DNA from: a phage
Strand: one strand, 5' to 3'
Assembly (NCBI GenBank): GCA_014437165.1
Contig: GCA_014437165.1_4090.3
Length of the DNA stretch: 64,000 nt
Made by a program: the position numbers and the translations under genes
Notes under the pieces: model-generated
Databases searched by the model: none
What the model was told of the DNA's origin: nothing
The model's input: the letters and a program-made list of their open reading frames with translations, nothing else
Shown here: positions 9,113 through 53,445 of the stretch, in pieces
Layout of the letters: every line of letters starts with the position of its first letter
Position numbering within the stretch: the stretch's first letter is position 1

Positions 9113-9850
9113 TTATACTGAATTGTTAGGATAATATCTCCCATTTCCCCATATTATTCGCACAGCACCACCACCAGCAGCCGTATAAGAAGAATTATCC
9201 CATATACTACCACCACCACCATACATCTTACCAGCACCACCACTACCAGCACCACCATTATATGAACCACCGTAGCTACCACCAATACCATTAGCACCTT
9301 GAACAATGATACCAGTACCACCACCCGTACCAATGAACGAGGTATTATAGAATGTACCACCGCCCCCGCCGCCGCCAGCACCATTTTCACCAGTGATTGC
9401 ATCTCCGTTACCACCTTTACCTGTGTAGCCACCAGCACCACCACCAATGACTGCACCACCACTTACACCAGTATTGCCACCATTACCACCACCATCATTA
9501 ATAGCGTTAGCAGCTTTTCCACCTAGTCCACCAACCGTATATGCACCAGTGAAGCTAACACATAGTTTTTCAGTTCCACGATATAAACCGTTTTCAACTG
9601 GTGTAGTAGTGTTGGTATGCGTAAGAGAAACACTTAAGTACTCACCACTAGTAACCGGAATATTATTACGCCACGATAAGCCGCCGCCAGCACCACGTTG
9701 ACCACCCGGCGAAATAACACATACTGATATTTCGGTAACGCCAGCAGGAACTGTAAATTGTGTTGTTCCTATTGTCGTGATTAATTGTTCACCATGTGGC
9801 TTATATTCAATTTCATTCCCGTACTTAATCATTCTTCCAAAAGGTAACAT
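9113..9850 (-). CDS. glycine-rich (GGxGG / GxGGxG repeat) protein carrying the same N-terminal MLPFGRMIKYGN tag
   Basis: 245-aa ORF; N-terminal ~60 aa non-repetitive, rest Gly/Ser/Thr/Asn-rich; same SD/terminator module as RCC1 paralogs. Confidence 0.75.
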   Translation of the reverse strand: MLPFGRMIKYGNEIEYKPHGEQLITTIGTTQFTVPAGVTEISVCVISPGGQRGAGGGLSWRNNIPVTSGEYLSVSLTHTNTTTPVENGLYRGTEKLCVSFTGAYTVGGLGGKAANAINDGGGNGGNTGVSGGAVIGGGAGGYTGKGGNGDAITGENGAGGGGGGGTFYNTSFIGTGGGTGIIVQGANGIGGSYGGSYNGGAGSGGAGKMYGGGGSIWDNSSYTAAGGGAVRIIWGNGRYYPNNSV

Positions 9851-9897
9851 AATTCCCTCCTTTATTCATTATAATATATTTAATACAAAAAGAAAAG

Positions 9898-9916
9898 CCA
9901 GTACTGAGTACTGGCT
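9898..9916 (-). terminator. intrinsic terminator GCCAGTACTCAGTACTGGC + T-run
   Basis: hairpin + TTTTCTTTTTG on minus strand. Confidence 0.7.
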
Positions 9917-9922
9917 ATTATA

Positions 9923-11110
9923 TTATAATTGTCGGGGTGTATCTAGTACATATCTAGTTGTACTAGGACCACCATCATCATAAGTTCCGGTTGAATATAT
10001 ATTTTTCATATCAGTTAGAAATGTACGATATGAACCTCTATATATTTTTATTTTATCATACATAGAATATGTTATTTGTGTAGGCATTGGACATGCAGTA
10101 AACTTACCAACAGTTGCACTAGTACCAATACCCAATGAACCAGCATAACTACTGGCATTTAAACCAGTTGCATATACACCAGTACTCGTAATTAGTATAC
10201 TAGATTGTGGTGGGTATCCAGTATGAATTGAATACAAAGTACCGGGTGGTAACGTCGTACTGTTATTTCCTAAAACTCCATTAACAGAGCTAGATGTAGT
10301 GTTATTTCCCCATGCCCCATTATTAGCTAACCCACCGACAAGGAACTGACGTGCTCCTGTATTTGGATTTTCAACTAAAGCACTTACTGCACCAGTTGAG
10401 CATCCTGTGTATTGTAACGTTTTTGTGTATGTTGTATTTGGTTGATATAAAGTATATTGATTATATGAAGTCCATGTAGTCGCGGAACTTATACCGGATG
10501 TAACACCACCAATATATAAATTATTTTGTTTATCAAACAACAATACACAGTTATTTGTTGACTGTATTTGTGCAATATCAACATTAGGTGTGACCGCTTT
10601 TACAAATGAACCATCGGTTATTTCATAAGTAGTTCCCGTTCCATCGGCGAATTGTCTAGCACTGTTCCACCCTGTACTCCATATTGTATTATTGTCCATT
10701 AAGAAAGTAAACCACGTAGTACCTCCATACATCTGTTTAATTGAAGTACTTGAACTTTGTGTGTACAAATTTTGAATATATTGGTTATAACTTAAAAACG
10801 TAGTAGTACTAGTTGATAAACCAATATGACTACCATATCCACAGTAATAATAATTTGAGTCATTGTCTTTTACTAATAAAGTTCCTTGTGTAAGCCAGCA
10901 ATCGTTAACGTTTTCTCTAATTAATGTCCATGATTTTAATGCAGTGTTGTTTCCTCTACCGAATTTCCCAAAACTATTATTCCCACGTGCATATAGTTGA
11001 CCATCCGTATACAGAACCACAACATCTAAATCAGTTGGGATTATTTTCTTAATTTGAAGTGGTACTGGGGCAATATTCCCATAATTCATCATTCTTGCAA
11101 AAGGTAACAT
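9923..11110 (-). CDS. RCC1-like beta-propeller paralog with N-terminal MLPFARMMNYGNI tag
   Basis: 395-aa ORF; blades such as LYARGNNSFGKFGRGNN. Confidence 0.8.
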   Translation of the reverse strand: MLPFARMMNYGNIAPVPLQIKKIIPTDLDVVVLYTDGQLYARGNNSFGKFGRGNNTALKSWTLIRENVNDCWLTQGTLLVKDNDSNYYYCGYGSHIGLSTSTTTFLSYNQYIQNLYTQSSSTSIKQMYGGTTWFTFLMDNNTIWSTGWNSARQFADGTGTTYEITDGSFVKAVTPNVDIAQIQSTNNCVLLFDKQNNLYIGGVTSGISSATTWTSYNQYTLYQPNTTYTKTLQYTGCSTGAVSALVENPNTGARQFLVGGLANNGAWGNNTTSSSVNGVLGNNSTTLPPGTLYSIHTGYPPQSSILITSTGVYATGLNASSYAGSLGIGTSATVGKFTACPMPTQITYSMYDKIKIYRGSYRTFLTDMKNIYSTGTYDDGGPSTTRYVLDTPRQL

Positions 11111-11157
11111 AAATTCCTCCTTTATTCATTATACTATATTTAATACAAATAAGAAAG

Positions 11158-11176
11158 CCAGTACAGAGTACTGGCA
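11158..11176 (-). terminator. intrinsic terminator GCCAGTACTCTGTACTGGC + T-run
   Basis: hairpin + T-run on minus strand. Confidence 0.7.
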
Positions 11177-11181
11177 TTAAA

Positions 11182-12330
11182 TCATTGTATAAATGACATA
11201 TCAACTTCTGTATAACTAAGAATGTTTTGTCCAGCAATTCCCCCCATTACTACCATAGCATACCCACAATAATATAATTGCTCAGTGTCCGTAAGTATAA
11301 GTGAACCAGATGGAGTGCGTACCAAATTACACGAACTATTAAACGAAGTATACGAAGGAGTATATGAGTACTGATTAATATTATTACCAACACCTAATTG
11401 ACCAAATCCATTCGACCCAGATGCGTATAGAACTTCATCACCTTTAGCTATATGTGATGCCATGTTACTAACACAAGTATATAGAGTATAAACTCCTGAA
11501 CTCAATAATGTCGGAGTTTTGTATTGTATATCGGTAGATGAAGAAGTACCACCTGTGCCAAATTCGTTCCCGTATTGTGCACCGAACTGTTTACCACAAG
11601 CGTACAAATTATTATCCGATTTAATAAAAAATGTACTTTGATAACTTACATCAAAATCTATAACATCCGAAGCAATCATCGTCACCCCAGTAATAGAAGT
11701 TTGATTACCTGTACCTAACTGATAGTAATAGTTAAAACCACAACCCCATAAAGTATTATCTTCTTTTAGGTATATGTTACCAACTGCCTTTTTAACCGAA
11801 GTTATAGTATCTACCCTTTTGAATGTGTTAAAAGAATTAATGTTTGTACCATCACCAAATGATGATAGGTTCGAGTTATTGTTAACTCCACAACAATACA
11901 ACGTACCATCGTTTGTTATCAAATTCACCTTCATATCATTAAAACTACTCATGTATTTTATATCAGAAACATTAATACCACCTGATGTTATCCACGTAGT
12001 ACAGTCCGTCCACAAAGTTTTTGTATCAGTTACACCAGTGAATGCCTTCGTGTTACCAGTGATAAAAACTTTTCCAGTACCTTTCTCTTCATACAATTGA
12101 CAACTACTACTGTTATCTTCCAATAGAACTCGTTTAACATTCTCTGCACAAAGAATAAATTTACTCGATGCTACACCTGTACCAGTACCCCAATTCGTCG
12201 CAGAAGATGCATACAACTTATTAGTATAAGTATCATGAAGATACATAGAATCACTTGAATATATTTTAAAACGCCTATCCTTACCAGGGGCAATATTCCC
12301 ATAATTCATCATTCTTACAAAAGGTAACAT
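11182..12330 (-). CDS. RCC1-like beta-propeller paralog with N-terminal MLPFVRMMNYGNI tag
   Basis: 382-aa ORF; canonical blade YASGSNGFGQLGVGNN. Confidence 0.8.
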   Translation of the reverse strand: MLPFVRMMNYGNIAPGKDRRFKIYSSDSMYLHDTYTNKLYASSATNWGTGTGVASSKFILCAENVKRVLLEDNSSSCQLYEEKGTGKVFITGNTKAFTGVTDTKTLWTDCTTWITSGGINVSDIKYMSSFNDMKVNLITNDGTLYCCGVNNNSNLSSFGDGTNINSFNTFKRVDTITSVKKAVGNIYLKEDNTLWGCGFNYYYQLGTGNQTSITGVTMIASDVIDFDVSYQSTFFIKSDNNLYACGKQFGAQYGNEFGTGGTSSSTDIQYKTPTLLSSGVYTLYTCVSNMASHIAKGDEVLYASGSNGFGQLGVGNNINQYSYTPSYTSFNSSCNLVRTPSGSLILTDTEQLYYCGYAMVVMGGIAGQNILSYTEVDMSFIQ

Positions 12331-12375
12331 ATTTCCCTCCTTTATTCATTATACTATATTTAATACAAAAAAGAA

Positions 12376-12398
12376 TGCCAGTATCAAGTACTGGCATA
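12376..12398 (-). terminator. intrinsic terminator ATGCCAGTACTTGATACTGGCAT + T-run
   Basis: hairpin + TTCTTTTTTG on minus strand. Confidence 0.7.
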
Positions 12399-12401
12399 TA
12401 T

Positions 12402-13571
12402 TTAAACTGGTGAATCTAATACAAATTCTAAGCTACTAACGCCACCATATGTGACATTTGTCCCCGTGCTATATACAAAATTACCATCAGTTATATAAGT
12501 TCGGTTATACCCACCTGCCATCTGCGACTTACTATAATCAAACCCATCAGGCACGATTGCTTTGGTATATACCAATGCATTGGTAGATGTACCAATACCT
12601 AACATACCAGCTTCTGAAGATTGATTGTAGCCGCAACAATATATACCATCTGTTGTAGCAATAACTTGGTTATAATATGAAGTATTGTTAGCAATGCTTA
12701 CTACATCACCGGGTGGCATTAGTGAAGCAGTTTGAACCTCAAATGCTCTATAATCATTGAGAGAACCATTTGTCCCATCTGCTTGTGCACCAAATATTCT
12801 CGAACCGCCATTTGCGATGATGGTTTTTCCATTTGGATCAGTACCAATTGCCATTGCCATTGAAGTACCATTCTCCGTGTAGTACTTGATATTAATTGTA
12901 TTTCTTAAGCTGGTAGGAGCACCATAATATATAGTATATAACTTACTTCCTGAACTTGTAACTGCATTTACTCTTCCTGTATAAAATAGCCATCCTTGGT
13001 TTGTAACATAACCGTGCATTAAATTACTTGCAAACAATTTAACAGGTAATTGATTTGCTGCGGTCGGAACAGTACTTTTGACGAATTTACCAGCAATATT
13101 GTTAGTTGTTGTCCCATCACCCAACTGACCATCTGACCCCACTCCAGTACTCCATATTGTTTGGTCTGACAGTAACACACTTGTAGTCTGATAACTAACT
13201 GCTATATCTAATATTGGTAATGTTAATGTATCGAATGTTGGCATAGCAGAAGTCCATATTGATACTGCTGCCCCTTTCATACCAACAGTTGTTGAACTTC
13301 CACTGTACCATATTTCATCATTGCTTTTCTTAAGAACTATCGTCGTGGCTCCCATCCAAAAATCTTGAACACCAGAAGTACTATAAGTCCATGTAGTAAC
13401 AGTATTTTTGTGACCTAAACCCAAAAGACCATTTGCATTCTCACCACGCACATATAAATCACCACTGTTTGTTAAAACAGCAACATTATAGTTGTTAGCA
13501 AGTATTTTTTTAATATTTGGTTTAGCAGGGGCAATATTCCCATAATTCATCATTCTTCCAAAAGGTAACAT
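12402..13571 (-). CDS. RCC1-like beta-propeller paralog with N-terminal MLPFGRMMNYGNI tag
   Basis: start at 13571 (Met55 of track ORF) is the one preceded by GGAGG and giving the tag; upstream extension runs through the terminator. Confidence 0.8.
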   Translation of the reverse strand: MLPFGRMMNYGNIAPAKPNIKKILANNYNVAVLTNSGDLYVRGENANGLLGLGHKNTVTTWTYSTSGVQDFWMGATTIVLKKSNDEIWYSGSSTTVGMKGAAVSIWTSAMPTFDTLTLPILDIAVSYQTTSVLLSDQTIWSTGVGSDGQLGDGTTTNNIAGKFVKSTVPTAANQLPVKLFASNLMHGYVTNQGWLFYTGRVNAVTSSGSKLYTIYYGAPTSLRNTINIKYYTENGTSMAMAIGTDPNGKTIIANGGSRIFGAQADGTNGSLNDYRAFEVQTASLMPPGDVVSIANNTSYYNQVIATTDGIYCCGYNQSSEAGMLGIGTSTNALVYTKAIVPDGFDYSKSQMAGGYNRTYITDGNFVYSTGTNVTYGGVSSLEFVLDSPV

Positions 13572-13615
13572 ATTCCCTCCTTTATTTGTTATACTATATT
13601 TAATACAAAAAAGAA

Positions 13616-13638
13616 TGCCAGTATCAAGTACTGGCATT
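13616..13638 (-). terminator. intrinsic terminator, identical to 12376-12398
   Basis: identical hairpin + T-run. Confidence 0.7.
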
Positions 13639-13641
13639 ATG

Positions 13642-14751
13642 TTATTTTGGTAAATCAATTTTAGTAAAGACTGCAACATCCTCGATTGCACCTGGAATGG
13701 CGTAATACGATCCAGTACTATACACATCTCCATTTTTGGTTAATATCGATGTCAAACCATCACTAAAAAGAACATCCCTAATCTCACTAACTTCAACGGG
13801 TAATTGTAAATTGGTAGCACTATATATAGCACCAGTTTGAGAATTGTTTAATCCCAAACCACGGTTCGCCCCAACACCCTTCTGATATGTACTAGTAATT
13901 ACCATTTGTGTAGCAGTATTTAAGGCAGGTGAATTCGTCATAAACAACGGAGAACTATTAGGCAAAGTACTTAAAGGAACTGCACGGAATGTAGTCGTAC
14001 CTGAACTAAGAAAGTTTGGAGTTTGACCACATACGAAATATGATGTACCATTATAGTAATTTAATGCATTACCACCAATGGCTGCATCGATTACACCAGA
14101 ACTACGCAATCCCCAAGTGTTAATTTGTGTTTGGTTCCCCGTACCATGCTGCCCACTACTATTCCATCCAGAACTATATAGCTTATTATCTAATGTAAGA
14201 TACATACTATCATTCGCATTGGTCATTACTTTACGAACGTTCGTAGCACATTGAGTTAATGTGTAAATTGATGATGAACCAATACCCAAAGAACCACGAT
14301 ATCCATTATCTCCTGCACCATAGAGTACTGAATTAGTGCTAAGTACAAATATTAAACCATTTGTACATACAATATTAGCAATTTCACTTACTGGTATAGC
14401 ATTGGTAAACCAATTAGTTCTTTCAACTAATACAGTACTGTAAGAAGTAGTTGTAGAAGATGAGAACCAGTACGTTTGACCTGATGTCCATATCGTATTA
14501 TCATTTTTAATAATAACAAGTGTACGATCACCCACGAAAAAATTAGAAACATCTGCACTTACTAATATCCATGAAGATACCGTGTTGGTATTACCATTTC
14601 CAGATTCACCACCTTGATTTCTACCTATGTAATATAAATCATGTGAATCAGTCAATAAGAATTGGCCTTGGGTAGAAGCACCAACTTTAATTATTTTTTT
14701 AGGACCAGGGACAATATTTCCATACCTAATTATTCTTCCAAAAGGTAACAT
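13642..14751 (-). CDS. RCC1-like beta-propeller paralog with N-terminal MLPFGRIIRYGNI tag
   Basis: start at 14751 (Met8 of track ORF) with GGAGG SD; 8-nt gap to upstream gene (coupled). Confidence 0.8.
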   Translation of the reverse strand: MLPFGRIIRYGNIVPGPKKIIKVGASTQGQFLLTDSHDLYYIGRNQGGESGNGNTNTVSSWILVSADVSNFFVGDRTLVIIKNDNTIWTSGQTYWFSSSTTTSYSTVLVERTNWFTNAIPVSEIANIVCTNGLIFVLSTNSVLYGAGDNGYRGSLGIGSSSIYTLTQCATNVRKVMTNANDSMYLTLDNKLYSSGWNSSGQHGTGNQTQINTWGLRSSGVIDAAIGGNALNYYNGTSYFVCGQTPNFLSSGTTTFRAVPLSTLPNSSPLFMTNSPALNTATQMVITSTYQKGVGANRGLGLNNSQTGAIYSATNLQLPVEVSEIRDVLFSDGLTSILTKNGDVYSTGSYYAIPGAIEDVAVFTKIDLPK

Positions 14752-14759
14752 ATTCCCTC

Positions 14760-15962
14760 CTATTGTTGCCATAACTGCGTTGGCATTAATGTTAGTGTAG
14801 TAATACTATAAGTGCCATCTGGCAATCTACCACCATTTCCATTCCAGCCACCACATGCATATAATTTATAATCTTTAGTAATTATTATGGTTCTGCTCCA
14901 ATCTTTAGATGCCATAAGAACATTGTCATAACCACCACTTATTGCACTAAGATTAAAAATATTCCAAGTTCTAACTAATGTATTAGTTCCATTACCTTCT
15001 TGACCATATGAGTTAGCACCACTACTTCTAACATATGGTGCGTATTGTGCCATAGGTGCACCAATTGATGCATTTCCCATATTACTTGGACAAATAAAAG
15101 TACTGTACTTACTTACATCAACCGTGACCGATGTGTTCCTAATTGGTGTTAGCTGATTTACCGATGTAGTCGTACCATTACCAGCTTGTCCATTACTGTT
15201 AGCCCCGCTATAATATACAGACCCACCAGTAGTAAACCACCAAGTAACATCGTATGTAGTACTAATATGTTCGACATCACTCATCACATATTTGTTCAAA
15301 TATATCATAGAACTAGCACCACAACCACTTTCACCGAAGTTATCCTTACCACAAAACCATGCCTTTTTATTTGATTTAATATAGTGCGTTCCTTGTAATG
15401 AACATGCCATATGTGTAACTTCACCCATATTAGTCATAACTGTTAGTGTGGGTATGGAATTTTGATTACCAGACCCACATTCACCATTGGTATTTCTTCC
15501 ACACGCAATTACTCTACCATCGGTTAATAATATTCTAGTACTTTCACCTATATATACACTCTTGATCATATTAGCCATAACACCAATTTTATTAAATGCA
15601 ACAGTAACATCAGTCCATGTTGTCAAAAAACCATTAACAGGTGTTGCATCTCCATAATCAGAAAATGCACCAACCGATCCAGTGTAGTATATTTTATTAT
15701 CCAAATCAATCATCAATGAACCTTGAACACCAAGCCAAAAGGCTGCACAGTTCCTTGCAAGTACTGTAAATGACGAAACTGCTGCTGAATTCCCAAGACC
15801 AAATTGATAAAAGTTATTACTACCATAACCATATAAAGTATTAGTTGGGTTATGTAGATACATACAGTTTGTATAATGTTGTTGTAAAACATCTGAGAAC
15901 TCTACAGGTTCTGGACCTGGTGCAATATTTGCGTACTTAATCATTCTTCCAAAAGGTAACAT
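14760..15962 (-). CDS. RCC1-like beta-propeller paralog with N-terminal MLPFGRMIKYANI tag; first gene of the minus-strand array
   Basis: 400-aa ORF; SD GGAGGG upstream. Confidence 0.8.
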   Translation of the reverse strand: MLPFGRMIKYANIAPGPEPVEFSDVLQQHYTNCMYLHNPTNTLYGYGSNNFYQFGLGNSAAVSSFTVLARNCAAFWLGVQGSLMIDLDNKIYYTGSVGAFSDYGDATPVNGFLTTWTDVTVAFNKIGVMANMIKSVYIGESTRILLTDGRVIACGRNTNGECGSGNQNSIPTLTVMTNMGEVTHMACSLQGTHYIKSNKKAWFCGKDNFGESGCGASSMIYLNKYVMSDVEHISTTYDVTWWFTTGGSVYYSGANSNGQAGNGTTTSVNQLTPIRNTSVTVDVSKYSTFICPSNMGNASIGAPMAQYAPYVRSSGANSYGQEGNGTNTLVRTWNIFNLSAISGGYDNVLMASKDWSRTIIITKDYKLYACGGWNGNGGRLPDGTYSITTLTLMPTQLWQQ

Positions 15963-16011
15963 ATTTCCCTCCTTTATTTGTTATATCATATTTACCACAA
16001 AAAGAAAACCC

Positions 16012-16040
16012 TTGACATCCTTTCTGGACTCATTTATAAT
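16012..16040 (+). promoter_or_regulatory. sigma70-type promoter TTGACA-17-TATAAT for the plus-strand family A array
   Basis: TTGACA at 16012-16017, TATAAT at 16035-16040, then SD AAGGAGA and ATG 16064. Confidence 0.6.
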
Positions 16041-16063
16041 AGAAAAAATATAAGGAGAAATTC

Positions 16064-16309
16064 ATGAACAATGTAATAGATCACTACCAAGCACTTAGCC
16101 AAAGTACTAAGAACTATATGAGCTACATGAACGCAGAAGACTTCGCATTCTTCCTCTCAAAATTCTGTGCAATCAATACCCTCAAAAAAAGTACTACCCC
16201 AACAAGTGCACTTATGTTGAATTGCTTTATAGAGGACATCTTTGAGGGACTTCAAAACCCTGACGAAAGTAAACGATTCATTAACCTTTTAGTACTGGCA
16301 TCTATATGA
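16064..16309 (+). CDS. small protein, family A
   Basis: SD AAGGAGA; first of a tandem array of 60-80-aa paralogs. Confidence 0.55.
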   Translation: MNNVIDHYQALSQSTKNYMSYMNAEDFAFFLSKFCAINTLKKSTTPTSALMLNCFIEDIFEGLQNPDESKRFINLLVLASI

Positions 16310-16515
16310 CCCAAGAACAAATTATGCAGTACTACCTATGTGCTCTGTCAAAAGGTGAACAGAATAGCATAGAGCATCAACAAATTATACTTGCAAATGC
16401 AAAACGTTCGGCACTTCTGCTTAACTCAGTCAGAAATAACCTCATAAGGAATTTCCTTGAAGGTAACGAGTCTATGCAGTACTATTTCATCTTAACACTA
16501 TTAATCGAGTACTAA
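16306..16515 (+). CDS. small protein, family A
   Basis: ATGA overlap with previous gene. Confidence 0.55.
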   Translation: MTQEQIMQYYLCALSKGEQNSIEHQQIILANAKRSALLLNSVRNNLIRNFLEGNESMQYYFILTLLIEY

Positions 16516-16516
16516 T

Positions 16517-16726
16517 ATGAACACTGAACATAAAGAATTCTACACCAAATACCTTAGCAACGAAGAACAATTGTTTCTAAGGAGTGTATCACCTTTAAGT
16601 ATAGATACACCACACGCCAGAGATTGCTTTAATAATTGTATACGTAGTACTCTAGAAGCAATCGAATGCAATAACAAAAATATTATGTACTCAGGTTTAA
16701 TAGGACTAATCTACTTTTATGAATAA
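16517..16726 (+). CDS. small protein, family A (MNTEHKEFY...NNCI...)
   Basis: tandem, coupled. Confidence 0.55.
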   Translation: MNTEHKEFYTKYLSNEEQLFLRSVSPLSIDTPHARDCFNNCIRSTLEAIECNNKNIMYSGLIGLIYFYE

Positions 16727-16913
16727 TCATGAAGATTTCTATTGTAGTAAACTACACAAGCAAGAACAGCTATCATTCTCTTTAGCACGACCTATGAGAA
16801 AGAATAATCTGTATTATAATTACGATTTCAGGATAGAGACACGTAATGCAATAGAACATACGTTCCCTGCAACTAAGTACCGCTCTATCCTGAACCTCAT
16901 CTTTAAGTTCTAA
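16719..16913 (+). CDS. small protein, family A
   Basis: 8-nt overlap with previous. Confidence 0.5.
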   Translation: MNNHEDFYCSKLHKQEQLSFSLARPMRKNNLYYNYDFRIETRNAIEHTFPATKYRSILNLIFKF

Positions 16914-16965
16914 AAGGTGCAACAGGAACCGAGTACTTTAATATAGTAAGGATAATTGCATTACA

Positions 16966-17151
16966 ATGAATCATATAAGCTACTACTACCAACAACTATC
17001 CGACAGAGACAAGTACAGTCACAACTCCCATGTGTGGTACTACAAACGCGGCAGTATAAGAGACAAACAACATTACTTCTGTATTTCTATTAAAGAAGCA
17101 CTGACAACTAAGTACACGTACCGAGCAGTACTTAAACTAATCTCTATGTAA
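16966..17151 (+). CDS. small protein, family A (…KYTYRAVLKLISM)
   Basis: paralog of 17160-17342. Confidence 0.55.
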   Translation: MNHISYYYQQLSDRDKYSHNSHVWYYKRGSIRDKQHYFCISIKEALTTKYTYRAVLKLISM

Positions 17152-17159
17152 GGAAGAAA

Positions 17160-17342
17160 ATGAACATAGAATTCTATTTAACTAAACTACAACACGCCGA
17201 AAGATTCAACTTCAATAAGTTCAATATTTTCTACAATTGCGGGAACAAAAAAGATAAACACACCTTCCTATATGTCGTCACAAGAGATGCACAAAACGAA
17301 AAGTACACATACAGAGAAGTAATGAAACTAATCGCTATTTAA
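17160..17342 (+). CDS. small protein, family A (…KYTYREVMKLIAI)
   Basis: SD GGAAGAAA; paralog of previous. Confidence 0.55.
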   Translation: MNIEFYLTKLQHAERFNFNKFNIFYNCGNKKDKHTFLYVVTRDAQNEKYTYREVMKLIAI

Positions 17343-17350
17343 GGAATACT

Positions 17351-17530
17351 ATGCAACAATTCTATATAGAACGTATAACCATAAAAGACCGTTTCATGTA
17401 CGACACATTCGTTGATTACTACAACCTAGGAACAAAAAGTACTAAAAATATTAATCTCAATAGCTGCATTTATGCTGTACTAACACAAGATAATCCCTAC
17501 AGGGAAATCCTCGCCCTGGCATCTATATAA
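17351..17530 (+). CDS. small protein (59 aa), family A-like; below the ORF-track cutoff
   Basis: ATG 17351 after SD AAGGAA; ends ...ILALASI. Confidence 0.45.
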   Translation: MQQFYIERITIKDRFMYDTFVDYYNLGTKSTKNINLNSCIYAVLTQDNPYREILALASI

Positions 17531-17540
17531 AGGAAACCAA

Positions 17541-18212
17541 ATGAAACTTAATGCACACAGCAAACAATACCTTAAGCACTTTAAGTACCTCAATAGTATT
17601 CAGGCAGAATCAGTTACATCTGCATATACGTATCACCCGAATGTACTAAAGAAACGAAATAAAAAGGAAAAATCCAGTACAAATGGAGTTAACGTATCAA
17701 AGAACCTTGAATTGTACATGAAGAAAAATAATATAGCTGTTCATTATATGAATATCTATAATACTGATTTAAAAGTATTGAGTACTAATACGAGCACAAA
17801 GGTACTAAAGAACGCATCCTTCATCATCAATATGCAGTTGGATAATACCCCGTGCACTTTAATGCTATACTTCGGGAATACATACTTCTTCGGGAATTGT
17901 AACACCTCCCACGATGTCAATACAGCACAATTCCAAATGGGTGGCATATACTCTACTGATGCAGAAAAAGTACACGAGAATATGCACTTCTGGCAAGCAC
18001 AACGTACAGAAGAAACTGATACAGTACTACAATTCCTCAAAGAACTAGAACACAAAGAACTACAGGAAGAAGAACTATTCATGTACAGTACTGTAATCGA
18101 TAATCCAGTACTCTATAAAAACGCGTACAATCTGACAAAACATGTACAGGAACTTATCAGTACTAATAAGAAAATGCATCACCTCATTACGTATATTACA
18201 AACTATGTATAA
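17541..18212 (+). CDS. hypothetical protein (223 aa); contains EEELFMYSTVIDNP, a possible divergent family C core
   Basis: SD AAGGAAA; long ORF. Confidence 0.6.
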   Translation: MKLNAHSKQYLKHFKYLNSIQAESVTSAYTYHPNVLKKRNKKEKSSTNGVNVSKNLELYMKKNNIAVHYMNIYNTDLKVLSTNTSTKVLKNASFIINMQLDNTPCTLMLYFGNTYFFGNCNTSHDVNTAQFQMGGIYSTDAEKVHENMHFWQAQRTEETDTVLQFLKELEHKELQEEELFMYSTVIDNPVLYKNAYNLTKHVQELISTNKKMHHLITYITNYV

Positions 18213-18390
18213 AGAATACTACAGGGAACATCTCCCAATGTATCTCCAACACCTTGTACCAACAGAACCATTGGGTATAGAAAAAAACTACGAAAAAGAC
18301 TACTTCATTCAGTGCACTAAATCCTCGATATATATTGAAGACTATAATCGAGTACTGTATCACATCCTTTTACTAATATATAGGTACTAA
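18205..18390 (+). CDS. small protein, family A (MYKEYYREH…LLLIYRY)
   Basis: internal ATG 18205 overlapping previous stop preferred over track start 18142. Confidence 0.55.
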   Translation: MYKEYYREHLPMYLQHLVPTEPLGIEKNYEKDYFIQCTKSSIYIEDYNRVLYHILLLIYRY

Positions 18391-18391
18391 T

Positions 18392-18574
18392 ATGCACAAA
18401 GAATACTACACACAATTTCTCCCCAGCATTTTTGAACACTACGCCAGATACAAAGTCCCCCTGGATAACGATTTGGCAGTACTGGGATTCAATAACTGCA
18501 TAGAACGAAGTATAGAAAATAGTAGTAGTTATGACCAGCTATATAACACTATCCTACTTATATTCAGGTACTAA
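18392..18574 (+). CDS. small protein, family A (MHKEYYTQF…LLIFRY)
   Basis: TAATATG junction. Confidence 0.6.
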   Translation: MHKEYYTQFLPSIFEHYARYKVPLDNDLAVLGFNNCIERSIENSSSYDQLYNTILLIFRY

Positions 18575-18575
18575 C

Positions 18576-18764
18576 ATGCATAAAGAATACTACACAAAAT
18601 ATTTCCCAATGTACCTCAGAACTAATCTATTAGATAAACCTCGCGGTATCAATGCACAAAATGATAAAGTGTATTTTACTATGTGCACTAAAGCATGTAT
18701 ACTAGATTTTGACAGCTACCATCGAGTACTGTATCATACCCTGTACCTAGCTTTCGTATTCTAA
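18576..18764 (+). CDS. small protein, family A (MHKEYYTKY…)
   Basis: internal ATG 18576 (Met16 of track ORF) gives the conserved N-terminus. Confidence 0.55.
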   Translation: MHKEYYTKYFPMYLRTNLLDKPRGINAQNDKVYFTMCTKACILDFDSYHRVLYHTLYLAFVF

Positions 18765-18773
18765 GAGAACAAT

Positions 18774-18959
18774 ATGCATAAAGAATTCTACTTAAGCCAT
18801 CTGGATCTAAACTCCCAAATGCTTATACCACTAATCCCAATAGATATCAAGGATAAGAAAAATACCGAACAATTCATTTACCATACACAGTGTGCGATCA
18901 CCCCAAATTACATTCCATATGAATTGTACTACATTCTCGCCCTAATATATAGGTACTAA
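18774..18959 (+). CDS. small protein, family A
   Basis: MHKEFY N-terminus, LALIYRY C-terminus. Confidence 0.6.
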   Translation: MHKEFYLSHLDLNSQMLIPLIPIDIKDKKNTEQFIYHTQCAITPNYIPYELYYILALIYRY

Positions 18960-18960
18960 T

Positions 18961-19146
18961 ATGCATAGAGAATACTACACACAATTTGTTAAAGGGAACT
19001 ACAAACATGCCGTACCCAGAACCCCTTTAAATTCTCATGACCCAAGTACTATATTCTTGTTTAATGACGCAATACGTACAGTACTCAATACTAAAGATGA
19101 AGATGTGCAGTACGTATTCTTACTATTACTTATATACAGACACTAA
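18961..19146 (+). CDS. small protein, family A
   Basis: MHREYYTQF…LLLIYRH. Confidence 0.6.
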   Translation: MHREYYTQFVKGNYKHAVPRTPLNSHDPSTIFLFNDAIRTVLNTKDEDVQYVFLLLLIYRH

Positions 19147-19151
19147 CTAAT

Positions 19152-19334
19152 ATGAATAAAGAACATAAAGAATTCTATATAAGAAAACTAACATTCGTCC
19201 CCGTAAGAATATATAAAGAATGCGACCCAAGATTATACCTATGGCACTTCAATGAGTGCATAAAAGATTCTATATACCCTAAGAACTATAAAGAACAATT
19301 GTGCTCAGTACTAACACTAGTACTATCATATTAA
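19152..19334 (+). CDS. small protein, family A
   Basis: MNKEHKEFY…NECI…. Confidence 0.6.
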   Translation: MNKEHKEFYIRKLTFVPVRIYKECDPRLYLWHFNECIKDSIYPKNYKEQLCSVLTLVLSY

Positions 19335-19349
19335 TTAATAGAGAATACT

Positions 19350-19541
19350 ATGTATAAAAACTTCTATATAAGTAAACTAAAAGAAAATGAACAAGTATGG
19401 ATTAGATCTATAATTCCACTGGCATTTAATAGATATGCATTTAACAGATGTACCGAGATTGCTATAGACCCTTATAATATTAAAGAGAATGTACAGTATA
19501 ATCAGTACTACTATATCTTAATGCTTATATATAGGAAGTAA
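19350..19541 (+). CDS. small protein, family A
   Basis: MYKNFY…LMLIYRK. Confidence 0.6.
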   Translation: MYKNFYISKLKENEQVWIRSIIPLAFNRYAFNRCTEIAIDPYNIKENVQYNQYYYILMLIYRK

Positions 19542-19560
19542 TTAAACACAAGTAGACAGG

Positions 19561-19643
19561 GGAAGCTCCTAGTGAACAACCTTTATGTACAGGCGAATTG
19601 TTAAAATTCAGCCTGGACAAATGCGATCACTAGGATTCTCCCC
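19561..19643. repeat. 17-bp imperfect inverted repeat GGGGAAGCTCCTAGTGA ... TCACTAGGATTCTCCCC with ~50-bp loop
   Basis: read directly at the end of the family A array. Confidence 0.5.
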
Positions 19644-20178
19644 AGGCTAAACCCCGTAATCATAGGTAGTCATAAGTAATCATATATAAACATTTATATG
19701 AGCACCGTAGAATCACAGAATGATTATATATGATTCAGTACTGATTAGTATAGACAAGATTGCTCAAGAATGCACGGAAATGTGTGTGAATGATTCAGTA
19801 CTGATATGCCACTAAGTAGGCAGAGGAAGTCTGCCGTACTTTGTAGTTTCCAAGCTCCTTTTCCATTTTCAAATTACATCAAATGTAATCAAAAGTAATC
19901 ACGCAATGATTAGTACTGAATTATTACTTTCACCTTAATTACAATTACCCTTTTACCCTTCGGGGTAAAATTCCATTACCCCTTGAGGCTCCAGCAAAAA
20001 GTTGGTTAGTACTCCATCCTAAATCTCGATCCTAAAAATTTTGGAGTACCTATGAAATAAAAGTTGGATCTTCGAAAGTTGAAATTTACGTTGGGACGTT
20101 TATGATTTGTGGGATATAATGATGTTTGTAGACGGGTAGTTCTCAAGAATATCAGTACTGAATGGTGAAAGAAAGTTA

Positions 20179-20206
20179 TTGACATTATGATTCAGTACTG
20201 TATAAT
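20179..20206 (+). promoter_or_regulatory. sigma70-type promoter TTGACA-16-TATAAT with no ORF downstream
   Basis: TTGACA 20179-20184, TATAAT 20201-20206; downstream ~200 nt lacks SD/ORF and ends at perfect hairpin CCACCAGCTTGTGCTGGTGG. Confidence 0.4.
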
Positions 20207-20565
20207 GTTCTACATAGGGTGATGAGTTGCTGCGAACAATTCATTTACTCTACCTCCTGTCGTGAGACAGTACAGAAAAGATAGTTCCTCCTGTGGTGGT
20301 ACATCTTTTTGAACCTCATATGAAAATCGTAATAACAGTACTGACATTAACAGAATGGTGTCAGTACTGATTTTAATCTAAAGCATTATGCCACCAGCTT
20401 GTGCTGGTGGATTCCCTCTAACAGTATTCAGTACTACATGATAGTCTTCATCCTCCTACAGTAACAGTGAGGGCTATTGTGGGAGTACTGAATACTCCCT
20501 TCTTAAAGATAGATCTATGGTATAGTACTGACGGATTTTGGGCGTAGTAACCCTAGGTTGAATTT

Positions 20566-20720
20566 AGACGTAGAGATGTCTAGACCTCCAGATGGCTGGA
20601 AGTAAAGATGGCTATCCCTCTAGGCGGCTGGATGGCTAGATTTCTAGATGGCTGTACTGCTAGACGTTTGGACGGCTAAACGGCTAGATGGTTACACGTC
20701 TGGATGTATAGACGGCTAAA
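20566..20720. repeat. iteron-like array of about 10 degenerate direct repeats (C)TAGAYGGCT
   Basis: AGATGGCT/GGATGGCT/AGACGGCT/GGACGGCT copies at ~10-16-bp spacing. Confidence 0.6.
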
Positions 20721-21419
20721 TCAAAATTTTTATTTTATTTTTTCCAATAGTTCCCCTACCGCGTGGGGATGGTTTCCCCGCAGTATCTGGAGTTAGATTT
20801 TTCTGAATCTGGAATCATTATCTAATAAACTGGGGGCAATGTCAACCGCCTGGATGAATAATTTTAAAAAATAATCTAGTACTGAATTTTAGATACAACT
20901 ATGCACCCGGTGGGCTAGAGTCTTTCTCGACTTGATGAAACTATTATACAGTACTGAAAAAATAAAGCAATACCCTAAACGCAAAAAGTTTTAATTAATT
21001 TGCTTGCCATCCTGGGGCGTACTATGATACTATTATTCAGTACTGAGAAAGTGCTATGACCTGCTAAGGTGCGGGAGTGTATCCTTTTTAAATTTACTGA
21101 ATTTTGGGCGTAATTCCGCACCCCCTGGGGTATCCGCTTTCTCGCGTCTATGTAGTAATTATACGCTTTTTTAGTACTGAGTCAATAGCTAAAAACAAAA
21201 TAATTGAAAATAATTTAACGCGTTTAAACGGCCCGTAAAGCCCTGGTTAGCTGGTGGCGGTGCAAATGTATAGCTTAGGTGTATTAATGCGTTAGAATGC
21301 GATTGAGGACGTTTTACGGGGTATAGTACTGAATCAGTACTGAAAGATTGTTCTCCCTGGATTGTTCCAGTACTCCTATATAGAAAGAAAACTATTTTAA
21401 AAGTATTTGTAGAAAGTAC

Positions 21420-21447
21420 TTGCAAAGTATTGGGAAAGGTGTAGAAT
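21420..21447 (+). promoter_or_regulatory. promoter TTGCAA-16-TAGAAT followed by 5'-UTR hairpin
   Basis: precedes ATG 21505; hairpin CGGGGGAGACGCTCCCG between -10 and SD. Confidence 0.5.
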
Positions 21448-21504
21448 GTTTTACATCGAGACGGGGGAGACGCTCCCGACTCACTTTTAAAAGAGATTAA
21501 AACG

Positions 21505-41494: not shown

Positions 41495-41692
41495 ATGCGT
41501 ATTTTAACTAAAGAACAGCACCACGAAAGACTTATCAATAACATGGCTATGATAATGTATAAGTCCCATGACCGTGGTATTGCCTATAAGCGTGAATTAA
41601 TTATGGCACTATTCATTGGAACTAACTTTCAGGAAAGGTATGTCAACGATTGGATTTGGTATTTAATTGAAGATATAACGAGTAAACTATGA
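41495..41692 (+). CDS. family B small protein (LGTNYQ core)
   Basis: …FIGTNFQERYVNDWIWYLIEDITSKL. Confidence 0.65.
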   Translation: MRILTKEQHHERLINNMAMIMYKSHDRGIAYKRELIMALFIGTNFQERYVNDWIWYLIEDITSKL

Positions 41693-41889
41693 AAAAGCGT
41701 ATTTTAAATAAAGAAGAATATCAATCACTGTTACGTAAAAACTTCACAAAGATTTATAATACAGACACACACGTAGAACGAATGGAGTTATACATTTTGA
41801 TTACATTGGGAACAAACTATCAGGGTAGATGGGTGTGGCAATATATGGACTCCTTAAAAAATGAAATATTGTCCAAGAGGAAACAATGA
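41689..41889 (+). CDS. family B small protein
   Basis: ATGA overlap; …LGTNYQGRWV…LKNEILSKR. Confidence 0.65.
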   Translation: MKKRILNKEEYQSLLRKNFTKIYNTDTHVERMELYILITLGTNYQGRWVWQYMDSLKNEILSKRKQ

Positions 41890-42095
41890 AAACTATAACA
41901 CGAACCCAATCATACGGTCTTATCTTGAAATACATGGACTTAATGGTGGATATCAGCAAAGACCTTCCTAAAACTGAAATTGAAGTTGCAAGAGCAGAGA
42001 TCCGCATGTTGGCTGTACTGAACACAAACCATCAGGAAGATTATGTTGAAGAATGGATTCGATTTTTAATAGAAGATATAAAGAGTAAACTATGA
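41886..42095 (+). CDS. family B small protein
   Basis: ATGA overlap; …NTNHQEDYVEEWIRFLIEDIKSKL. Confidence 0.65.
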   Translation: MKTITRTQSYGLILKYMDLMVDISKDLPKTEIEVARAEIRMLAVLNTNHQEDYVEEWIRFLIEDIKSKL

Positions 42096-42307
42096 TTATT
42101 ATAGAAAACTCATATCAATATACTGAACGCATCGCTGCCAGACAACTTGAAATCCTCATAATATACGAAGAGACTTCTGATTTAAACTTAGCCGAGGTAT
42201 TGGAAAATGATATACTATTGGGTGCATTCTTAGGAACAGACTATCAGAAGTATTATGAGGAAAAGTATTTGTCATCTCTTGAGAAATATATCAGGAGCAA
42301 ATTATGA
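42092..42307 (+). CDS. family B small protein
   Basis: coupled; LGTDYQKYY. Confidence 0.65.
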   Translation: MIIIENSYQYTERIAARQLEILIIYEETSDLNLAEVLENDILLGAFLGTDYQKYYEEKYLSSLEKYIRSKL

Positions 42308-42516
42308 TTTTTTTAACACCAGAAGAATATAAGAAACGTTTCAATTCCGCACAGGGTGAAATCTTACTTATATACCTTTCAAATGCAGACCTTAACTTAT
42401 CAAGGGTATTAGAAAAAGATTTACTTATGGGTGCATTCCTTGATACAGACTTTCAGGTGTATTATGTAGGGGAATACTTAATTGCACTTCAGAATTATAT
42501 CAGGAGTAAACTATGA
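42304..42516 (+). CDS. family B small protein
   Basis: coupled; near-duplicate of previous. Confidence 0.65.
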   Translation: MIFLTPEEYKKRFNSAQGEILLIYLSNADLNLSRVLEKDLLMGAFLDTDFQVYYVGEYLIALQNYIRSKL

Positions 42517-42740
42517 AACATTTAAGTAACTCCGAGAAGAATAAAATTATCATAGCTGCAATAAACAAATATTTTACACTTCCTCACAAAGAAGGTTTAT
42601 GTGTAAGGGAACACAGGATAAACACCACCGATAAACGCATGATGGCTGTACTGGGGACGAACTTCCAGGAAGAGTATGTTATTGCACACATAGTTGCACT
42701 CAAGAATTACATTATGGACAAATGTAATGAACATCATTAA
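42513..42740 (+). CDS. family B small protein
   Basis: LGTNFQEEYV…HIVALKNYIMDKC. Confidence 0.65.
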   Translation: MKHLSNSEKNKIIIAAINKYFTLPHKEGLCVREHRINTTDKRMMAVLGTNFQEEYVIAHIVALKNYIMDKCNEHH

Positions 42741-42951
42741 TAACTTTGAATACGAGGCCCGTGCTAAGAGTGCCAGAAAAAAAGAGAACACCATTTACTT
42801 CACTATGATGTACTTACAATGGACTGAAATTGAAGAAAAGGTTGCTGAAGTATGGATGTTGGAATTCATGGGGACGCAGTATCAGAATAGGTTTGCGGGT
42901 GAGTATATCAATGTTCTTATGAAACAAATAGAAAGAAAGGAAAAGAACTAA
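42727..42951 (+). CDS. family B small protein
   Basis: ATG 42727 (Met12 of track ORF); MGTQYQNRF. Confidence 0.6.
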   Translation: MNIINNFEYEARAKSARKKENTIYFTMMYLQWTEIEEKVAEVWMLEFMGTQYQNRFAGEYINVLMKQIERKEKN

Positions 42952-43109
42952 TGGTTTTCATTAACATATCTGACCAACTCGATACTAAACTAGAAGTCGA
43001 GCAGAGTGAGGGATGGATGCTGTACTTTCTTGGAACTTCTCATCAAAATTTTTATATCCATGAACACATAGTTGCACTCAAGAATTACATTATGGACAAA
43101 TGCAAATGA
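42951..43109 (+). CDS. family B small protein (52 aa; below track cutoff)
   Basis: TAATG junction; …LGTSHQNFYIHEHIVALKNYIMDKCK. Confidence 0.5.
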   Translation: MVFINISDQLDTKLEVEQSEGWMLYFLGTSHQNFYIHEHIVALKNYIMDKCK

Positions 43110-43363
43110 AATACTTAACACAAGATGAATATTCACTTAGAATTCGAAAGCTCACCCCAGAAGCAAGAGTAATCTACGATGACCCCACCCTTACATGGAA
43201 CCAAATGCGAGCTAAAGTTAATGAGCTATGGTTGCTGTACTTTATGGGGACTCAATATCAAGATAAGTTTTGCAAAGAATTTGTCGATCAATTAATGAAT
43301 GTTATACAGGATAAACTAGATGAATATTGGCTCGCAAAACATGAAGACTTTATCAGGAGTTGA
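43100..43363 (+). CDS. family B small protein
   Basis: MGTQYQDKF. Confidence 0.65.
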   Translation: MQMKYLTQDEYSLRIRKLTPEARVIYDDPTLTWNQMRAKVNELWLLYFMGTQYQDKFCKEFVDQLMNVIQDKLDEYWLAKHEDFIRS

Positions 43364-43592
43364 GTATCAAACTGCCCTCTTCTCTCTTATTAACACCCTT
43401 AGAAAAAACAATGCATTACATGGTGCACCTGAAGTGGATGTTATCAACGGTGATGTTTATCTTATGAAATTCATTGGAACAAACTATCAAGATCTGTTCA
43501 TTCAACGATACTTGGCAGCATTAAGAAACCAAATCCAATATAAAACCCAGAGAGCCAAAAAAGAATGGAATAAACAATGCGACAAAGACTAA
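43320..43592 (+). CDS. family B small protein
   Basis: IGTNYQDLF; alternative start 43341. Confidence 0.6.
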   Translation: MNIGSQNMKTLSGVEYQTALFSLINTLRKNNALHGAPEVDVINGDVYLMKFIGTNYQDLFIQRYLAALRNQIQYKTQRAKKEWNKQCDKD

Positions 43593-43825
43593 ATCACAAA
43601 ATGTATTGTAAACTATTGCAGACACTGGCACAGAAACACTATGACACGGTATCTGAAATATTACCCTATGATATCATGCGTTTACTTCACTGTGAGGCCG
43701 AGATGCTTGTACTGATGACAGGCACTGATAAAACAGCAATCGCCAGATCGATAGAGCAATATATTGATGCACACTGCCAACACATGAGAACCGAAATCTG
43801 GAGGAAAGAGAATGATAATTCTTAA
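43577..43825 (+). CDS. family B small protein (divergent, MTGTDKT)
   Basis: tandem position, same size. Confidence 0.55.
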   Translation: MRQRLNHKMYCKLLQTLAQKHYDTVSEILPYDIMRLLHCEAEMLVLMTGTDKTAIARSIEQYIDAHCQHMRTEIWRKENDNS

Positions 43826-44027
43826 TGAGTATCAGTATCATTGGAGGTTACAAACTATCAAATCAAAAGTGTATAGTATTGTGTTAAACAAATCTATTGC
43901 ACAAGAGGACAAATGTGTTATAATAGCTGAAATGAAGTTGGGTGTATTCGTAGGGACAAACTATCAAAACATCTACACTGACGTATTATTAAGTTCCTTA
44001 CGTAACAAGGTGGTATCCAAAATATGA
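43812..44027 (+). CDS. family B small protein
   Basis: VGTNYQNIY. Confidence 0.65.
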   Translation: MIILNEYQYHWRLQTIKSKVYSIVLNKSIAQEDKCVIIAEMKLGVFVGTNYQNIYTDVLLSSLRNKVVSKI

Positions 44028-44242
44028 GAAATTTACAAGGCTTTGAATACATCAGACTCCTGAAAACATGTGGAAGCAGAAGGAGAATGATATCAAGCGA
44101 TAAGAGCATCCAAGCTAACCTTAAGCACGCACTAGTAACTGAACTCTATGTAGGTGCACTCTTAGGCACAAACTATCAACAAATGTATGTAGATCTATGG
44201 ATTGACGCTCTACAGAAAGAGGTTAAAAGTAAATGCAAATGA
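44024..44242 (+). CDS. family B small protein
   Basis: LGTNYQQMY. Confidence 0.65.
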   Translation: MRNLQGFEYIRLLKTCGSRRRMISSDKSIQANLKHALVTELYVGALLGTNYQQMYVDLWIDALQKEVKSKCK

Positions 44243-44451
44243 TTAATTTAAGTAAAGACGAATTTTATGTTATACTGGCGAAAACTTATCCAGCACGTAA
44301 GGCCGTTTATGATAGTCACATTATTGAACCCTCAAAGAAGTTGATTTTAGTAAATGAGATAAAGATGCTTTCAGTCTTAGGAACAAACTATCAAGAGAAT
44401 GCTGTACTGATGTTAATTGATGCCCTCCAGCGAGAGGTTAAACGTAAATGA
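44233..44451 (+). CDS. family B small protein
   Basis: LGTNYQENA. Confidence 0.65.
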   Translation: MQMINLSKDEFYVILAKTYPARKAVYDSHIIEPSKKLILVNEIKMLSVLGTNYQENAVLMLIDALQREVKRK

Positions 44452-44678
44452 AAATGATTCATTTAACTTACCATGAATATCAAAAACGTTTAAATGCATC
44501 CAGAGATATAAGGATTCAAATATTCAATAACAAAAGATTGAAGCCTGATATCAGGAAAATCAAAATCATAGAAGCCGTGTTGTGCAACTTCCTAGGGACT
44601 AACTATCAGGAAGGTAAGGTAGAAAACTATCTTATAGAACTCATGAATAGTATTGAAAATAAATGTAAGGGTAATTAA
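44448..44678 (+). CDS. family B small protein
   Basis: LGTNYQEGK. Confidence 0.65.
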   Translation: MKMIHLTYHEYQKRLNASRDIRIQIFNNKRLKPDIRKIKIIEAVLCNFLGTNYQEGKVENYLIELMNSIENKCKGN

Positions 44679-44679
44679 C

Positions 44680-44919
44680 ATGAAAATGATTAAATTATCT
44701 CAAGCAAAATATAAAGAACGCCTGGTGAAAATTGCACCTGGACTTAATGAAATCCATCACGGAGAAGTCATTAAACACGGAAATAAGATGATTATGAAAC
44801 TTGAGTTAAAGGTGGGTGCATTCATAGGAACAAACTATCAGGAGTATTATGTAGATGAATACATAATCGCACTTAAGAGATACATTGGAAGAAAACTATA
44901 TCTACAAACTAAAGAATAG
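44680..44919 (+). CDS. family B small protein
   Basis: ATG 44680 preferred over TTG track start 44653; IGTNYQEYY. Confidence 0.6.
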   Translation: MKMIKLSQAKYKERLVKIAPGLNEIHHGEVIKHGNKMIMKLELKVGAFIGTNYQEYYVDEYIIALKRYIGRKLYLQTKE

Positions 44920-44948
44920 TATTGAAAATAAATGTAAGGGTAATTAAC

Positions 44949-53444: not shown

Positions 53445-53445
53445 T

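Follow-up and report, generated by a model that had tools for sequence, protein, structure and literature searches.

The stretch of DNA analysed here (the window: 64,000 nucleotides (nt) of contig GCA_014437165.1_4090.3, NCBI GenBank assembly GCA_014437165.1) is, by comparison with PBECO4, 121Q and G17 (97% identical), part of an Asteriusvirus jumbo coliphage, and carries at positions 16064-19541 of its plus strand an unbroken series of open reading frames (ORFs) that comprises 14 small genes (g01-g07 and g09-g15; 59-81 amino acids (aa)) and one gene of 223 aa, g08. What is established for the array is its layout, the homology of its genes, their fold class and the selection on them, together with the flux in copy number and the hypervariability of the locus. 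We infer, at about even chances, an early, translationally coupled operon whose repertoire of small binders turns over by birth and death and is aimed at host or competitor proteins, the timing being read from the promoter and from relatives, and the binder role from the evolutionary pattern. An original prediction from the sequence had described about 15 paralogs of 60-80 aa; the tandem run is real, but the paralogs number 14 rather than 15, since g08 is unrelated to them. The most informative features, namely the copy-number flux, the recombination at 5' codons and the hypervariable g03-g15 cassette, were missing from that prediction.

Homology of the small genes

Homology was evaluated at two levels: by pairwise Smith-Waterman z-scores against residue shuffles, and by hhalign comparison of subfamily profiles, enriched with the arrays of eight close relatives and of the distant phage JNE01, against 50 column shuffles. 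At the pairwise level, the core group (g03 and g09-g15) mostly reached z-scores of 3-20, with a few pairs lower, and the trio g05-g07 reached 10-14; g04 bridges the groups, the links of g01 and g02 are weak, and g08 has none. At the profile level, the core together with subfamily D was joined to subfamily B with a probability of 94% (57 columns, z 12.7) and to subfamily E with 92% (56 columns, z 16), while B was joined to A with 35% (62 columns, z 7.3), and in each of these three comparisons none of the 50 column shuffles attained the observed score. With earlier and shallower profiles, g04 (subfamily D) had already matched the core at 97%. On these profile links, the 14 small genes are one superfamily with five subfamilies (A, B, C, D and E), of which A is the least certain member, being joined through B alone. 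The genes g01, g02 and g05-g07 have in common with the core just the framework [FY]-Y-x3-L ... F ... L-x-L-I; likewise, the N-terminus M-(H/N)-K-E-(Y/F)-Y and the central N-x-C-I, which had been attributed to the whole family, are present (MHKEYY, MHKEFY and MNKEHKEFY; NNCI and NECI) but limited to the core subfamily, g03 and g09-g15.

A likeness of this kind could in principle be an artefact of low-complexity composition, because the proteins are rich in Tyr, Asn, Ile and Leu, the DNA is AT-rich, and the compositional skew is indeed present (Tyr 10.3%, Gly 1.3%). This explanation deserves practically no credence, since it is refuted by both shuffle controls: the z-scores rise to 20 against residue-shuffled sequences, and the scores of the main links are never attained by column-shuffled profiles, which argues that the family is real. 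A failure to align above background once composition is controlled had been named beforehand as the result that would overturn the family, and the members align well above it. Moreover, when a core hidden Markov model (HMM) was run against the 967 six-frame ORFs of the window, it retrieved g04 at an expect value (E) of 1.3e-6 and g02 next, after which the matches (g06 among these) fell to chance level, and no ORF outside the array scored below E 0.3.

In PHROGs v4, full-length matches to phrog_11711 (columns 1-62 of 62) were obtained for g03, g04, g09, g10 and g15 at E 2e-13 to 7e-27, while g01, g02, g05 and g06 had no match to it at E<=0.01. This database cluster corresponds to subfamilies C and D and carries no function, so that the superfamily described here is wider. 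A fusion of a family member to the C-terminus of g08 was also considered, on account of a likeness by eye over its last ~58 aa, and was rejected: hhalign scored it at 9.5, while the shuffles averaged 9.1 and 23 of 60 reached the observed score.

Predicted fold and chemistry

Structure prediction had been proposed for the family, and an AlphaFold2 model of g10, built on a 44-sequence alignment, attained a mean predicted local distance difference test (pLDDT) score of 86.9 and a predicted template-modelling (pTM) score of 0.71, with helices at residues 3-7, 12-19, 27-42 and 46-59; the core member is thus confidently modelled as a four-helix mini-protein. A fold search with this model returned just generic helical fragments and no analogue in the PDB. 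Across 38 sequences (80% identity filter), conservation falls on hydrophobic residues spaced as in a helix (Y5/Y6, L10, F33-I37-I41, 50-53/54-57, L56 and Y60) and on the polar H2-K3-E4, and the stretches 12-32 and 42-49 are highly variable. The model of g08 (pLDDT 45) is too poor for use.

The hydrophobic C-terminus noted originally (LLLIYRY, LALIYRY, LLIFRY and LKLISM) is present, and in the model it is a helix predicted to pack into the core rather than a membrane segment. A membrane anchor or a holin-like or exclusion-like protein was rejected, as the maximal 19-residue Kyte-Doolittle mean of the small genes is <=1.02 (threshold ~1.6). Similarly, a DNA mimic or a uniform nucleic-acid binder was ruled out by the mixed charge of the small proteins, whose isoelectric points (pI) span 5.1-9.6. 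Searches of the array in Pfam, NCBIfam and PADLOC gave no matches, and no helix-turn-helix (HTH) motif was found; the description of a diversified mini-protein array of unknown function therefore holds, phrog_11711, itself of 'unknown function', being the sole database counterpart.

Copy-number flux, recombination and selection

When all array ORFs were classified, the block order A-B-C-D-(B)-E(2-6)-F-C(7-13), in which F denotes g08, was fixed in nine genomes, with 14-23 small genes in each; ten phages in all keep this architecture. The E block holds 2-6 copies and the C block downstream of F (g09 included) 7-13, F being always placed between the two. Where the window has its 52-nt gap (16914-16965), an additional B-type gene is present in G17, phAPEC6 and A4. 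This variation in copy number is seen across phages that are ~88-98% identical to the window in DNA. Even the distant array of JNE01, arranged as A-B-B-E-C-E-F-C9, retains the promoter, in the form TTGACA-17-TACAAT.

Gene g09 is a chimera whose DNA tracks gene 256/257 of 121Q up to ATGTATAAAGAATACTA and gene 259 thereafter; the crossover falls within AAAGAATACTA, and two genes were thereby deleted. The conserved first codons that adjacent paralogs share thus serve as recombination joints. Nucleotide-level conservation among the core paralogs is confined to these first five codons. The paralogs are 17-36% identical, and at the invariant core residues P25, F41 and L69 third-codon positions agree at 0.25-0.46, that is, not above chance; since the third positions are random even where the residue is invariant, the paralogs are, on this codon evidence, old and not recent near-identical copies. 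Between orthologues, the ratio of nonsynonymous to synonymous polymorphism (pN/pS) is 0.40 when pooled and ranges from 0.11 to 0.86, the lowest values (0.11-0.16) belonging to g05, g10 and g11 and the highest to g06 (0.71) and g04 (0.86), which indicates coding genes under uneven constraint.

Hypervariability is evident against JNE01. Upstream, over 13526-16530, which includes an RCC1 gene, the promoter, g01 and g02, the window is 90% identical to JNE01 in DNA, and from 19595 on it is 84-88% identical; between these sharp borders, in the cassette g03-g15, DNA similarity is largely lost (Table 1), and the best JNE01 protein matches, that of g08 included, are 25-56% identical. The flanking genes, in comparison, are 86-95% identical at the protein level in nine of ten cases and 69% in the tenth. 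The g01 and g02 of the window are the alleles of JNE01 and PBECO4, from which the allele pair of 121Q, G17 and A4 differs deeply. A mosaic breakpoint is located at ~16473-16530, where similarity to 121Q begins (~16473) and similarity to JNE01 stops (16530).

Distribution

A database-wide search with a family HMM, as had been suggested with the original prediction, indicates that the family is confined to Asteriusvirus. By megablast, 36 phage records match positions 15900-19700 at 88-98% identity, all of them Escherichia or Salmonella jumbo phages of Asteriusvirus, with PBECO4, 121Q, G17 and phAPEC6 among the named ones. In 5.8 billion clustered proteins, profile searches with C/D/B retrieved 49 clusters, those with E 25 and those with g08 22; wherever the contigs are long or named, they are of Asteriusvirus type (~350 kb) or belong to E. 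coli assemblies that carry such phages. When 1.84 billion representatives were scanned exhaustively with HMMER, 31 clusters were retrieved, all of 59-69 aa except one, an 867-aa repeat protein rejected as spurious. The most divergent members trace to JNE01 and Turkey5, and neither the 5.8 billion clustered proteins nor the 1.84 billion representatives contained a relative outside Asteriusvirus. No paper describing the family was found in the literature searched.

Transcription and translational coupling

The array is preceded by a sigma-70 promoter that matches the consensus at 12 of 12 positions (Table 1), and no terminator-like hairpin was found within the array, as originally stated. The claim of a single promoter stands in so far as this promoter is perfect; that it is the only one is not provable, given a promoter-like site with 11 of 12 matches inside g11 (18709-18737). 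The window has 17 perfect promoters of the form TTGACA-N16-18-TATAAT where 0.19 would be expected; they lie within 16012-39155, all but one on the plus strand, which marks this interval as a probable early-gene region. Several are near-identical repeats (e.g., at 33794, 33990 and 34258). In most of the 17, the spacer contains AGTACTG directly joined to the -10 element (AGTACTGTATAAT), and the palindrome CAGTACTG occurs in 52 copies in the window against 0.76 expected (e.g., at 20193, 29070, 31801 and 37124); this suggests that AGTACTG/CAGTACTG is an operator at which early transcription is regulated. The motif is missing from the array promoter at 16012. The T4-type late motif TATAAATA has no copy on either strand of the 64 kb (~15 expected), and ATAAATA has two, both distant from the array, against 49 expected. 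By this measure the window is a region of early type. The avoidance extends to the RCC1-like genes, and the products of their phAPEC6 counterparts are virion proteins.

In phage CBB, clusters of short ORFs behind RpoD-like promoters have been taken as early host-takeover genes (PMC5259590), and RNA sequencing (RNA-seq) of PA5oct found its early genes to be uncharacterised ORFs, with reliance on the host RNA polymerase (PMC7318152). From the promoter and these relatives, the array is strongly inferred to be transcribed early by the host RNA polymerase. The literature searched contained no RNA-seq or other expression data for Asteriusvirus. A search for structured RNA in or after the array gave a single sub-threshold microRNA match, which is spurious.

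The genes are tightly joined, with junctions of -8 to +15 nt apart from the gap between g04 and g05. For the conserved C-terminal Arg of the ending ...Y-R-Y*, 32 of 39 unique genes use AGG, a codon whose share of Arg codons is 18% at other places in these ORFs and 8% in the long genes of the window. As this AGG is located 8-10 nt upstream of the next ATG, it probably doubles as the Shine-Dalgarno (SD) sequence of the next gene.

Functional interpretation and alternatives

Under the reading preferred here, the host sigma-70 RNA polymerase would start at 16012-16040 and produce one polycistronic mRNA of ~3.5 kb, the 15 cistrons of which would be translated by coupling, the SD sequence of many being the AGG Arg codon that ends the preceding gene. 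Fourteen cistrons would give soluble four-helix proteins of ~60 aa with a common hydrophobic core and varying surfaces and charge, and g08, in its fixed position, an unrelated 223-aa product. Birth and death would proceed as the E and C blocks grow and shrink by recombination at the conserved 5' codons of adjacent paralogs, and whole g03-g15 cassettes would come to differ between phages with nearly identical flanks. Early in infection the proteins would act singly, each binding or inhibiting variable host proteins stoichiometrically, and the outcome would be a diversified host-takeover or counter-defence repertoire. Probable early expression, restriction to one genus, a stable scaffold with a variable surface, dispensable members and a hypervariable cassette all fit such a repertoire of small binders. 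A bolder version, which we regard as a speculative minority view, is a single-fold combinatorial library of early inhibitors, in which each paralog would neutralise a different immune or housekeeping protein of E. coli, and changes of cassette and blocks would set the strains that can be infected; if so, the array would do on one scaffold what anti-defence islands do with a mixture, and recombination joints would be built into it in the form of the conserved 5' codons.

Several points weigh against a binder repertoire. No similarity to known anti-defence or host-takeover proteins was found, the fold search having returned generic helical fragments, and the strong conservation of g05, g10 and g11 between phages is unlike a pure arms race. 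The pN/pS values were obtained from best-hit 'orthologues', so that gene conversion could confound them, and the AGG cases are not independent, because related genes were counted. Tight coupling, moreover, would suit the subunits of a complex equally well. It is on this coupling that a single hetero-oligomeric early assembly could be based, for example a solenoid-like helical scaffold whose paralogous subunits would be held at equal stoichiometry, with the conserved C-terminal hydrophobic helix and the N-terminal motif as possible interfaces. Nevertheless, numbers of 14-23 copies among near-identical phages and the viability of the chimera with its two-gene deletion indicate that members are individually dispensable, a poor fit to an obligate complex, and together with the wide range of surface charge they make such an assembly quite unlikely. 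An unlikely role, too, is one in phage-phage competition (superinfection exclusion) or in tuning the phage's own gene expression in place of counteracting host defences. Hypervariability of a cassette between conserved flanks is typical of exclusion loci as well, and expression appears to be early; on the other hand, neither DNA-binding nor nuclease domains came up in Pfam, one would expect conservation of self-regulators and not hypervariability, and the membrane segments that many exclusion proteins have are missing. Between phage-phage exclusion and counter-defence as such, sequence data cannot separate.

The conserved M-H-K-E-Y-Y N-terminus on otherwise diverged small proteins, in a polymorphic locus, also recalls the internal proteins (IPs) of T4, in which case it would serve as a capsid-targeting signal for proteins that are packaged and injected against host restriction. 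This is very improbable: the homology is full-length and not restricted to a leader, the only promoter type is sigma-70 in a region without the late-promoter motif, and, in data on the relative phAPEC6 rather than on the phage of the window, none of gp540c-548c is among the 62 proteins of the virion proteome (PMC7247149 Table 1), which lists the RCC1-like gp549 and gp551 and a 4.7-kDa protein. Finally, the genes could be mostly neutral and serve no particular function, having arisen by tandem duplication in a genome that has packaging capacity to spare, as several more tandem families occupy the same window, some pN/pS values (g04 and g06) approach 1, and duplication has been proposed as a way to genome expansion by Hua et al. 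(PMC5646251). Neutrality is nonetheless decidedly improbable in view of the intact ORFs, of core residues kept despite saturated synonymous sites between paralogs, of the pooled pN/pS and the still lower values of some members, and of a promoter and block order that are kept even in the distant JNE01.

Returning to the binder repertoire, the locus is compact and well delimited, and combines the usual hallmarks of host-virus conflict: it is putatively expressed early, restricted to one lineage and in flux as to copy number, and its cassette between conserved flanks is hypervariable. If its members inhibit host defences or essential factors, they would supply ~14-23 natural variants on one 60-residue scaffold, which could aid the mapping of E. 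coli immunity, the understanding of host-range differences between near-identical phages, and the design of mini-protein binders. Jumbo phages are candidates for therapy, and more than 80% of their genes are without known function.

Gene inventory and genomic surroundings

The features of the array are collected in Table 1. Gene starts were picked from the conserved N-terminus and SD-like sequences, so that for g09 (18205) and g11 (18576) starts later than the first in-frame ATG of the longest ORF were chosen.

Table 1. Position of the array genes and associated features in the window.
Feature	Position	Strand	Description
Sigma-70 promoter	16012-16040	+	TTGACA-17-TATAAT, 12/12 match; A-rich tract before
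g01	16064-16309	+	subfamily A, 81 aa; strong SD TAAGGAG
g02	16306-16515	+	subfamily B, 69 aa; 4-nt overlap with g01 (ATGA)
g03	16517-16726	+	subfamily C (core), 69 aa; phrog_11711 E 2e-13
g04	16719-16913	+	subfamily D, 64 aa; closest to core; phrog_11711 E 1.5e-19
Gap, 52 nt	16914-16965		sole non-coupled junction
g05	16966-17151	+	subfamily E
g06	17160-17342	+	subfamily E
g07	17351-17530	+	subfamily E
g08 (F)	17541-18212	+	223 aa, outside the family; phrog_29152, function unknown
g09	18205-18390	+	subfamily C; chimera
g10	18392-18574	+	subfamily C
g11	18576-18764	+	subfamily C
g12	18774-18959	+	subfamily C
g13	18961-19146	+	subfamily C
g14	19152-19334	+	subfamily C
g15	19350-19541	+	subfamily C
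Hypervariable cassette	16530-19595	+	JNE01 DNA similarity absent except two ~72% patches

Array members are labelled only hypothetical in all ten GenBank records inspected, and public tables of coding sequences (CDS) omit many of the ORFs that the HMMs detect: phAPEC6 has 9 of 19 annotated, SP27 15 of 20, and BF17 13 CDS for 23 array genes. The present analysis corrects the public annotation of such arrays (phAPEC6, BF17). Over 16001-20000, the coding strand of the array has a negative GC skew (-0.15) and a strongly positive AT skew (+0.16 to +0.20), unlike the other plus-strand genes of the window, where GC skew is positive; the Gly-poor, Tyr/His/Asn-rich proteins of the array may be the cause.

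Upstream, the array is bordered by RCC1-like paralogs on the minus strand (nine to ten, at 4140-15962), whose counterparts in phAPEC6 are virion-associated. Compared with JNE01, only the copy adjacent to the array (14760-15962) is conserved, at 94%, and the other JNE01 copies match at best at 25-31%, so the RCC1-like array is hypervariable too. Downstream, ~2 kb without a convincing ORF (19541-21500) precede many small plus-strand genes; this region is 84% identical to JNE01 nonetheless, matching the coding flanks, and displays a raised GC content and a change of GC-skew sign near 20000. Palindromes of the form CAGTACTG are numerous in it, iterons resembling GGCTAGATGGCT form a block at ~20570-20720, and a perfect sigma-70 promoter is located at 20179-20206; Rfam gave no match. 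Candidate interpretations are an origin, a terminus boundary and a non-coding RNA region.

The array is unusual in a relative sense only, for at least four other tandem paralog families lie within the same 64 kb. A second array at 41495-47407, with one further gene at 62196-62387, comprises 24 small, tightly overlapping paralogs (52-90 aa) without a Pfam match; kinship with the array described here was ruled out (hhalign <=1.2%). Another family has eight members (53-172 aa) across 47951-63898, and another six (147-163 aa) at 58103-61489, the representatives of both being without a Pfam match; a paralog pair lies at 50113-51500. Tandem duplication in 121Q had already been remarked in general terms (PMC5646251).

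Comparison with known systems

Loci of this kind are known, namely tandem expansions that are specific to one lineage and lie in the early region of a phage. The protein family itself is uncharacterised, and nothing related to it in structure was detected. The array resembles the early host-takeover clusters of phages, such as the SPO1 host-takeover module, the hyperplastic early regions of T4 and the presumed early region of CBB, in its small lineage-specific ORFs, its strong host-type promoter and a gene content that differs between relatives; those clusters, however, consist mostly of unrelated ORFans behind many promoters, whereas the array has one promoter, 14 homologues and a fixed block order. 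Lineage-specific tandem expansions are usually read as conflict-driven. As in the 'gene accordions' of poxviruses and the expansions of giant viruses and jumbo phages, tandem copy number shifts by recombination between repeats, phage G with its ~35-copy zinc-ribbon expansion being an example of the lineage-specific kind (PMC7824862). Unlike gene accordions, the paralogs of the array are old, with saturated synonymous sites and no recent near-identical amplification.

The array further shares with the ip locus of T-even phages the character of a polymorphic small-protein locus with a conserved N-terminus and conserved flanks, and departs from it in that its products are undetected in virions (of phAPEC6), no late promoter is present, and homology is full-length. 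Anti-CRISPR (Acr) and anti-defence operons similarly encode small, fast-evolving proteins of narrow distribution without conserved domains, for which, as for the array, early expression would be expected. Acr loci, nevertheless, combine mixed, unrelated families, usually with an HTH regulator (Aca), whereas the array would present a single fold and has no HTH gene.

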